NCBI RefSeq assembly: GCF_003334315.1
Contig: NZ_QOWR01000007.1
Origin: Escherichia coli
Lineage (GTDB): Bacteria; Pseudomonadota; Gammaproteobacteria; Enterobacterales; Enterobacteriaceae
DNA: 64,000 nucleotides
Direction: 5' to 3' (one strand)
The translations under genes were made by a program, and so were the position numbers. A model generated the notes under the pieces. That model was not told where the DNA came from, made no database searches, and saw only the letters and a list, made by a program, of their open reading frames with translations. Below, one piece after another: positions 50,949 through 51,031 of this stretch. The stretch's first letter is position 1, and each line of letters starts with the position of its first letter.

Positions 50949-51031
50949 GAATGTTTTAGCAATCTCTTTCTGTCATGAATCCATGGCAGTGACCATACTA
51001 ATGGTGACTGCCATTGATGGAGGGAGACACA

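Follow-up and report, generated by a model that had tools for sequence, protein, structure and literature searches.

In externally initiated transcripts of IS10/Tn10, translation of the transposase is blocked by fold-back inhibition, and structures similar to that of IS10, in which the ribosome-binding site (RBS) is sequestered, occur in IS3 and IS50. As cited in PMC13181058, the IS10 transposase is shielded from external promoters by such an RBS-sequestering secondary structure (Davis, Simons & Kleckner 1985, Cell 43:379).

The 83-nt spacer between yjfC and aidB of Escherichia coli, which contains the known Ada- and sigmaS-dependent aidB promoter (PaidB), carries an inverted repeat that may serve in a comparable arrangement. 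The DNA analysed was a stretch of 64,000 nt (hereafter the window; contig NZ_QOWR01000007.1). The window matches E. coli K-12 MG1655: window coordinates plus 4363243 give those of NC_000913.3, against which gene identities were checked; the gene order was nsrR-rnr-rlmB-yjfIJKLMC-aidB, all on the + strand. The features of the spacer and its borders are as follows, with positions relative to the aidB transcription start in brackets.

50946-50948, + strand: yjfC stop codon TAA, read from the sequence (the yjfC end at NC_000913.3 4414191 is window 50948)
50950-50962 (-56 to -44), + strand: Ada box AATgttttaGCAA (A box AAT, B box GCAA), the sole AAT-N6-GCAA in the intergenic region
50963-50975 (-43 to -31), + strand: CU-rich tract UCUCUUUCUGUCA, 5′ strand of the predicted basal stem (anti-Shine-Dalgarno), from minimum free energy (MFE) and centroid folds
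50979-50996, + strand: left arm of the inverted repeat, with a 14-nt core at 50983-50996 (-23 to -10), from sequence and repeat search
50994-50999, + strand: -10 hexamer CATACT of PaidB (the -10 model position 4412260 of NC_000913.2 is window 50994)
51001-51018, + strand: right arm of the inverted repeat, with a 14-nt core at 51001-51014 (-5 to +9), from sequence and repeat search
51006, + strand: aidB transcription start G51006, the mismatched base of the right arm (published start 4412272 of NC_000913.2)
51015-51027, + strand: 3′ strand of the predicted basal stem, UGAUGGAGGGAGA, which includes the Shine-Dalgarno sequence (SD) GGAGGGA (51019-51025), from the folds
51032-51034, + strand: aidB start codon GTG (NC_000913.3 aidB start 4414275)
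51035-51117, + strand: C-rich, G-poor first ~80 nt of the aidB ORF, by base composition a possible Rho loading region if left untranslated

The likeness to IS10 lies in two points. The start of the gene's own promoter falls inside or after the 5′ arm, so that only external transcripts carry the RBS-pairing segment; at aidB the start is at 51006, and the segments in question lie at 50979-50996 and 50963-50975. An external aidB transcript is also predicted in silico to fold with its RBS paired. The locus differs from IS10 in that aidB is a chromosomal stress gene and not a transposase gene, and its 5′ arm is not the terminal inverted repeat of a mobile element. The aidB structure, known here from prediction, has moreover two tiers, a basal anti-SD stem and an apical repeat over the -10 box.

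Results

A non-random inverted repeat between yjfC and aidB

The repeat was confirmed to be a real, non-random dyad. As first described from the sequence, its arms ATGGCAGTGACCAT (50983-50996) and ATGGTGACTGCCAT (51001-51014) are reverse complements at 13 of 14 positions around a 4-nt spacer, the sole mismatch being G50991 against G51006. Two distances given in the original prediction needed correction: the repeat starts 34 nt and not 35 nt past the yjfC stop (TAA 50946-50948), and 4 nt, not 6, separate the 14-nt right arm from GGAGGGA (51019-51025). Gapless extension in the repeat search gave 18-nt arms (50979-50996 and 51001-51018) matched at 16 of 18 positions, and the 18-nt right arm abuts the SD directly. 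With 200 dinucleotide-preserving shuffles of the 64-kb window as the null (loops of at most 10 nt), 0.085 repeats at 13/14 and 0.015 at 16/18 were expected per shuffle; three and two, respectively, were observed in the window. The other two 13/14 inverted repeats (4272-4301 and 63334-63362) are canonical intrinsic terminators with T tracts. One of these two has A-tract and T-tract flanks and may be bidirectional. The 48-nt repeat stretch folded at -23.5 kcal/mol as RNA (z = -5.6), with 0 of 200 shuffles equally stable, and at -14.1 kcal/mol as single-stranded DNA (z = -5.6).

Several element classes were considered for the repeat. Searching 50500-51500 with the Rfam covariance models gave chance-level matches only (E of at least 0.43, far below gathering scores). 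The repeat occurred at a median of one place per genome among 5,425 E. coli genomes, and being single-copy it is therefore not a REP/BIME-like repetitive element. CRP and FadR/PdhR-type motifs were considered by eye and rejected, as was a sigma54 -24/-12 element, for which the GG-N10-GC spacing fails. Within the N-terminal coding region of aidB there is also an 11-nt direct repeat, CAACCTATACC (51062-51072) and CAACTTATACC (51085-51095), 23 nt apart, possibly by chance.

The repeat lies over the core of PaidB

The aidB start was taken from supplement 23 of bioRxiv 10.1101/2020.02.05.936344, in which the Typas & Hengge list of sigmaS promoters is placed on NC_000913.2 with aidB at 4412272. By an offset of 4361266 from NC_000913.2 to the window, fixed by matching the 34-nt sequence of that supplement, this published mapping puts the start at 51006, upstream of 51014 and inside the right arm. 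The repeat accordingly covers -23 to +9 of PaidB (-27 to +13 when extended), with its centre at -7.5. The mapped -10 box agrees with the report that the first base of the aidB -10 box is a C, at -12 (PMC3141248), and independent support for its position comes from CCATACT, which in most of the Enterobacterales orthologues examined precedes the start codon by 37-38 nt. The Ada box consensus is AAT-N6-GCAA, with an A before the B box of aidB (PMC4437013; PMC3788762), and the base preceding the B box in the window is an A, in agreement with this literature.

PaidB as known is made up of the Ada box, an UP element and the sigmaS-selective CATACT with -12C/-13C. The inner part of the left arm, TGACC (-16 to -12), overlaps the sigmaS-specific determinants and the start of the -10 box, and the right arm carries +1. 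The outer part of the right arm, GCCATTGA (+5 to +12), is conserved across genera. Both this segment and the SD region GGAGGGAGACACA (region 51010-51031, +5 to +26) are conserved in many genera, with constant spacing to the -10 box CCATACTTA. A weak -35-like CTGTCA lies at 50970-50975, within the CU-rich tract. Scanning 50700-51300 with a promoter consensus gave no match, which is uninformative because PaidB depends on an activator and on sigmaS and has a poor -35. At window 50982 (NC_000913.2 4412248), a base of the extended left arm opposite T51015, the sigma38 preprint supplement says that Lacour et al. had G in their 'wild-type' aidB and that GenBank has C.

The accessible text of the Ettwiller 2016, Cho 2014 and Yan 2018 supplements holds no entry for aidB or yjfC. 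Dyad symmetry is not mentioned in the accessible descriptions of PaidB, nor were the repeat's sequence strings found in the accessible literature text.

With +1 at 51006, within the right arm, transcription from PaidB leaves out the entire left arm and the first 5 nt of the right one. The mRNA from PaidB therefore cannot form the hairpin, and the mapped 26-nt leader was unstructured (51006-51034: -4.0 kcal/mol, z = -0.1). A translation-attenuating hairpin in the aidB leader, one of the functions originally proposed for the repeat, is thus wrong for the gene's own transcript. The idea of a translation-blocking hairpin does survive, moved from the PaidB leader to the RNA that would read through from yjfC.

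Predicted folding of the yjfC read-through RNA

The upstream unit yjfIJKLMC is co-directional with aidB, and a terminator scan of the 83-nt spacer found no terminator-like site between yjfC and aidB, an arrangement in which transcripts of the yjf genes might enter aidB. RNA of 50949-51045 (97 nt, from the yjfC stop to the aidB start) folded at -38.2 kcal/mol (z = -5.3), and the same two-tier stem was the MFE and the centroid structure in both the 97-nt and a 261-nt context. In this predicted fold UCUCUUUCUGUCA pairs with UGAUGGAGGGAGA in a basal helix of 13 pairs, four of them G.U, which covers the SD, and the repeat stacks on top of it as an apical stem. The basal and apical structure together gave -35 kcal/mol (z about -4.7), and the in silico probability that the SD is unpaired in the read-through RNA was 0.00. 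The 87-nt region upstream of aidB ranked in the lowest 1.2% among all 87-nt windows on both strands of the 64-kb window.

Using RNAalifold, the basal stem was kept in 7/7 yjfC-adjacent sequences. The sense strand outscored the antisense strand in all five lineages (e.g. -4.7 vs -3.4 and -4.0 vs -1.6), which fits the G.U pairs in the basal stem. Downstream, the C/G ratio of the first ~80 nt of the aidB ORF was 1.8-1.9, at the 98th-99th percentile of 78-nt + strand windows in the window.

Strong folding is found where yjfC adjoins aidB

Thirty-two orthologous aidB upstream regions of Enterobacterales, that of the window included, were compared by the z of the 87-nt upstream region; E. fergusonii fell outside the comparison, not being separable from its 90% protein cluster. 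Among the 32 regions, yjfC was directly upstream of aidB only in E. coli, E. albertii, S. enterica (subspecies enterica and salamae) and Phytobacter (Metakosakonia) massiliensis. In the remaining sequences the feature preceding aidB, where determined, was the rlmB terminator in Citrobacter amalonaticus and Trabulsiella, and in Kosakonia and Phytobacter sp. AG2a it was a divergent transporter gene. Further yjfC-aidB adjacency was sought in two Kosakonia, Trabulsiella and Phytobacter sp. AG2a; none was found, and these served as extra negative controls. The two groups gave the following values.

yjfC directly upstream: 6 sequences (E. coli x2, E. albertii, S. enterica, S. salamae, P. massiliensis), z -3.7 to -4.8
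yjfC not upstream: 26 sequences (aidB preceded by the rlmB terminator, a divergent gene or some other gene), z +1.2 to -3.1, median about -0.7

Strong folding and yjfC adjacency thus coincided with perfect separation (6 vs 26 sequences). The apical stem alone gave z values of -4.9 in E. coli, -3.4 in E. albertii, -4.4 in S. enterica, -2.5 in S. salamae and 0.2 in Phytobacter, where a strong anti-SD stem formed by CCUCCCUUCGUU and AACGGAGGGAG accounts for the signal. The comparison amounts to two to three independent lineages only, because significance of the apical stem is confined to Escherichia and Salmonella, which share homologous outer arms, and does not extend to Phytobacter.

Between E. 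coli and Salmonella the outer stem kept 9/10 and 10/10 pairs, and two outer pairs were changed on both sides (A-T/G-C vs G-C/C-G), in a compensatory manner. The inner stem differs in sequence (GUGACCAU/AUGGUGAC in E. coli, AGUCA/UGACU in Salmonella), and the Salmonella version has a 10-nt loop and a 3-nt bulge. The right outer arm GCCATTGA is fixed at +5 to +12, while the left outer arm begins 5 nt further upstream in Salmonella (-31) than in E. coli (-26); a hairpin tolerates such a shift, but a protein site of fixed spacing does not. In Citrobacter, which is without the yjf cluster, 5 of the 10 outer pairs remain. The repeat was absent in about 20 other genera with the same -10 box, and its near-perfect form was limited to Escherichia. 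A 14-15-nt insertion relative to Citrobacter was considered and is plausible, but was set aside since the alignment between genera is too ambiguous.

Within E. coli, 50975-51022 was at least 99% identical in 4,621 of 5,425 genomes. The variants seen were T50976G (in an internal loop), A50983G (A-U to G.U; common), A51000T (in the loop) and T51002G (which breaks a loop-adjacent pair). Stem-weakening changes without compensation were T51002G, found in E. albertii and some E. coli, and a C.C mismatch in S. salamae; in E. albertii the repeat is down to 11/14. The CU-rich tract at -43 to -35 was also present in several genera without a co-directional upstream gene, e.g. in Enterobacter asburiae (P of an unpaired SD = 0.02), which suggests that the tract may be a DNA promoter element and its pairing with the SD incidental.

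Some further observations were made on these loci. The yjfC of E. albertii (1848-2414 of its aidB locus sequence) gave fragmentary matches with frame changes and is probably a pseudogene. In GCA_900450065.1 (labelled E. coli) yjfC was in four fragments and the right arm was without C51008 (GGTGATGCCATT); indel errors of a poor assembly, not true variation, are the probable cause. The rlmB terminator aaagccatccagatttggatggtttttttttt (46782-46812) is followed by yjfI in E. coli, but directly by the aidB promoter motif TTTTGTGACC in Citrobacter and Trabulsiella, so that the whole yjfIJKLMC cluster is an indel between the T tract and the aidB promoter. In nearly all orthologues outside Escherichia, the place taken by the Ada box AATgttttaGCAA in E. 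coli and E. albertii, some 53-44 nt upstream of the inferred start, is occupied by a conserved TTTTGTGAYC, and AAT-N6-GCAA was not visible at this place in Salmonella, Citrobacter and Enterobacter. With TTTTGTGAYC in place of the Ada box, Ada control of aidB may be specific to Escherichia.

Discussion

We read the repeat as, most likely, the apical stem of an IS10-like fold-back insulator against transcripts entering from yjfC, with a probability of about 0.4. In the read-through RNA the 13/14 repeat would stack on the 13-bp basal helix that pairs the CU tract with the aidB SD region, and with the SD so paired aidB would go untranslated from foreign transcripts. The untranslated, C-rich start of aidB might then be open to Rho termination, and the stable hairpin might be left behind as the protected 3′ end of the yjf mRNA. 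Transcripts from PaidB, starting at G51006 in the 3′ arm and carrying neither the 5′ arm nor the anti-SD tract, would have an open RBS. Confidence is held at this level by the small number of lineages, the occurrence of the CU tract elsewhere, the uncompensated variants, and the ability of templated mutation to mimic covariation.

For the proposed end of the yjf transcript, the closest comparison is with the stem-loops by which the 3′ ends of Rho-terminated transcripts are marked and protected. Like these, the aidB hairpin is stable, without a U tract, at the end of an operon and followed by a C-rich, G-poor stretch; unlike these, it overlaps a functional promoter and the SD of the next gene, and the tables of PMC7815308 give no RNA 3′ end in the yjfC-aidB spacer (yjfC may be too weakly expressed, or the tables incomplete). 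The tables do give a 3′ end at NC_000913.3 4415796 on the minus strand (window 52553), antisense to the 3′ part of aidB, in a file that we take to be the bicyclomycin (Rho-inhibition) comparison.

More tentatively still, the conserved two-tier stem-loop could be a promoter-specific translational gate, with yjf read-through folded shut and Rho-terminated and +1 transcripts left open. Such a gate would be maintained where yjfC abuts aidB (Escherichia, Salmonella and P. massiliensis) and would decay after loss of the yjf genes, which would make it a chromosomal, non-mobile counterpart of the IS10 structure.

Template-switch mutation at quasi-palindromes can produce complementary changes on both arms without selection. 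The repeat might therefore be a neutral by-product without a function of its own, in which the constrained TGACCAT (extended -10) and the conserved GCCATTGA were perfected into a quasi-palindrome by such mutation in the Escherichia lineage. We consider this rather unlikely, but several observations agree with it: other constraints keep both the inner part of the left arm and the outer part of the right arm alike from genus to genus, the near-perfect form is confined to Escherichia, erosion by A50983G and T51002G and down to 11/14 in E. albertii has gone without compensation, and the differences between E. coli and Salmonella are clustered, multi-base and on both arms, as from templated events. 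It does not account well for a repeat of which shuffles give only 0.015-0.085 per 64 kb, or for Salmonella keeping a hairpin with a different sequence and register. The perfect separation of the 6 from the 26 sequences by yjfC adjacency also argues against neutrality, as does Citrobacter, which, having lost the yjf cluster, keeps just half of the outer pairs.

That a dimeric repressor (AidB, Lrp or another factor) binds the palindrome at -7.5 and blocks RNA polymerase at PaidB seems improbable. As in operators of the LexA, TrpR and lac type over -10/+1, the dyad is centred on the core promoter, which its half-sites overlap in the classic operator position, and its arms are self-complementary as DNA too (z = -5.6); aidB is also annotated as autorepressed and listed as Lrp-regulated. 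In contrast to those operators, the repeat has no cognate regulator: no known regulator site matches it, the Ada box sits elsewhere (50950-50962), there is one repeat per genome, and no regulator gene adjoins it. AidB reportedly favours A/T-rich UP elements such as those found upstream of promoters (PMC3546729), which in PaidB would be upstream of the -35. For a simple dimer the distance of 18 bp between arm centres is unusual, and neither the sequence nor the spacing of the half-sites is conserved, the left one being 5 nt farther off in Salmonella. Moreover, most genera with this promoter have no such repeat, and its loss accompanies loss of yjfC adjacency, which an operator does not predict.

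The two remaining readings are both very improbable. A cruciform or strand hairpins, formed under negative supercoiling and modulating open-complex formation at PaidB, would suit a repeat that has the -10 box at its centre in E. coli and Salmonella, and weakly so in Phytobacter, and the stable single-strand DNA fold (-14.1 kcal/mol, z = -5.6), but the 10-nt loop and 3-nt bulge of Salmonella are unfavourable for extrusion, the G.U pairs that the basal stem needs are mismatches in DNA, and the link with yjfC adjacency is left without a reason. Intrinsic termination of yjfC, or attenuation by a hairpin in the leader of aidB, both raised in the original prediction, would suit a stable stem-loop directly after yjfC and before the aidB SD, but the stem is followed by GGAGGGAGACACAGUG / UGAUGGAGGGAG, so that, as that prediction itself had remarked, the U tract that goes with the G+C-rich stem of an intrinsic terminator is absent and the repeat is therefore not one; a terminator scan of 50700-51300 gave 0 sites, the two comparable repeats of the window both carry T tracts, and the aidB start lies inside the right arm with an unstructured leader behind it.

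Significance

The comparative pattern is clean but shallow, and a read-through insulator would plausibly be a modest addition to a well-studied promoter, its mechanistic kind being already known. The aidB promoter has long been used as a model for Ada activation and sigmaS selectivity, and many of the -10 and spacer mutations from that work fall in the left arm. If the dyad is functional, constructs with upstream yjfC sequence or vector read-through would report aidB expression unlike constructs that start at +1. If neutral, the repeat would be a neat example of how two promoter pieces, each under its own constraint, can yield a palindrome that is statistically striking. If the insulator is real, aidB would be a clear chromosomal case of a gene that shields its translation from an unterminated upstream operon, and an example of the decay of such a shield once the neighbouring operon is lost.
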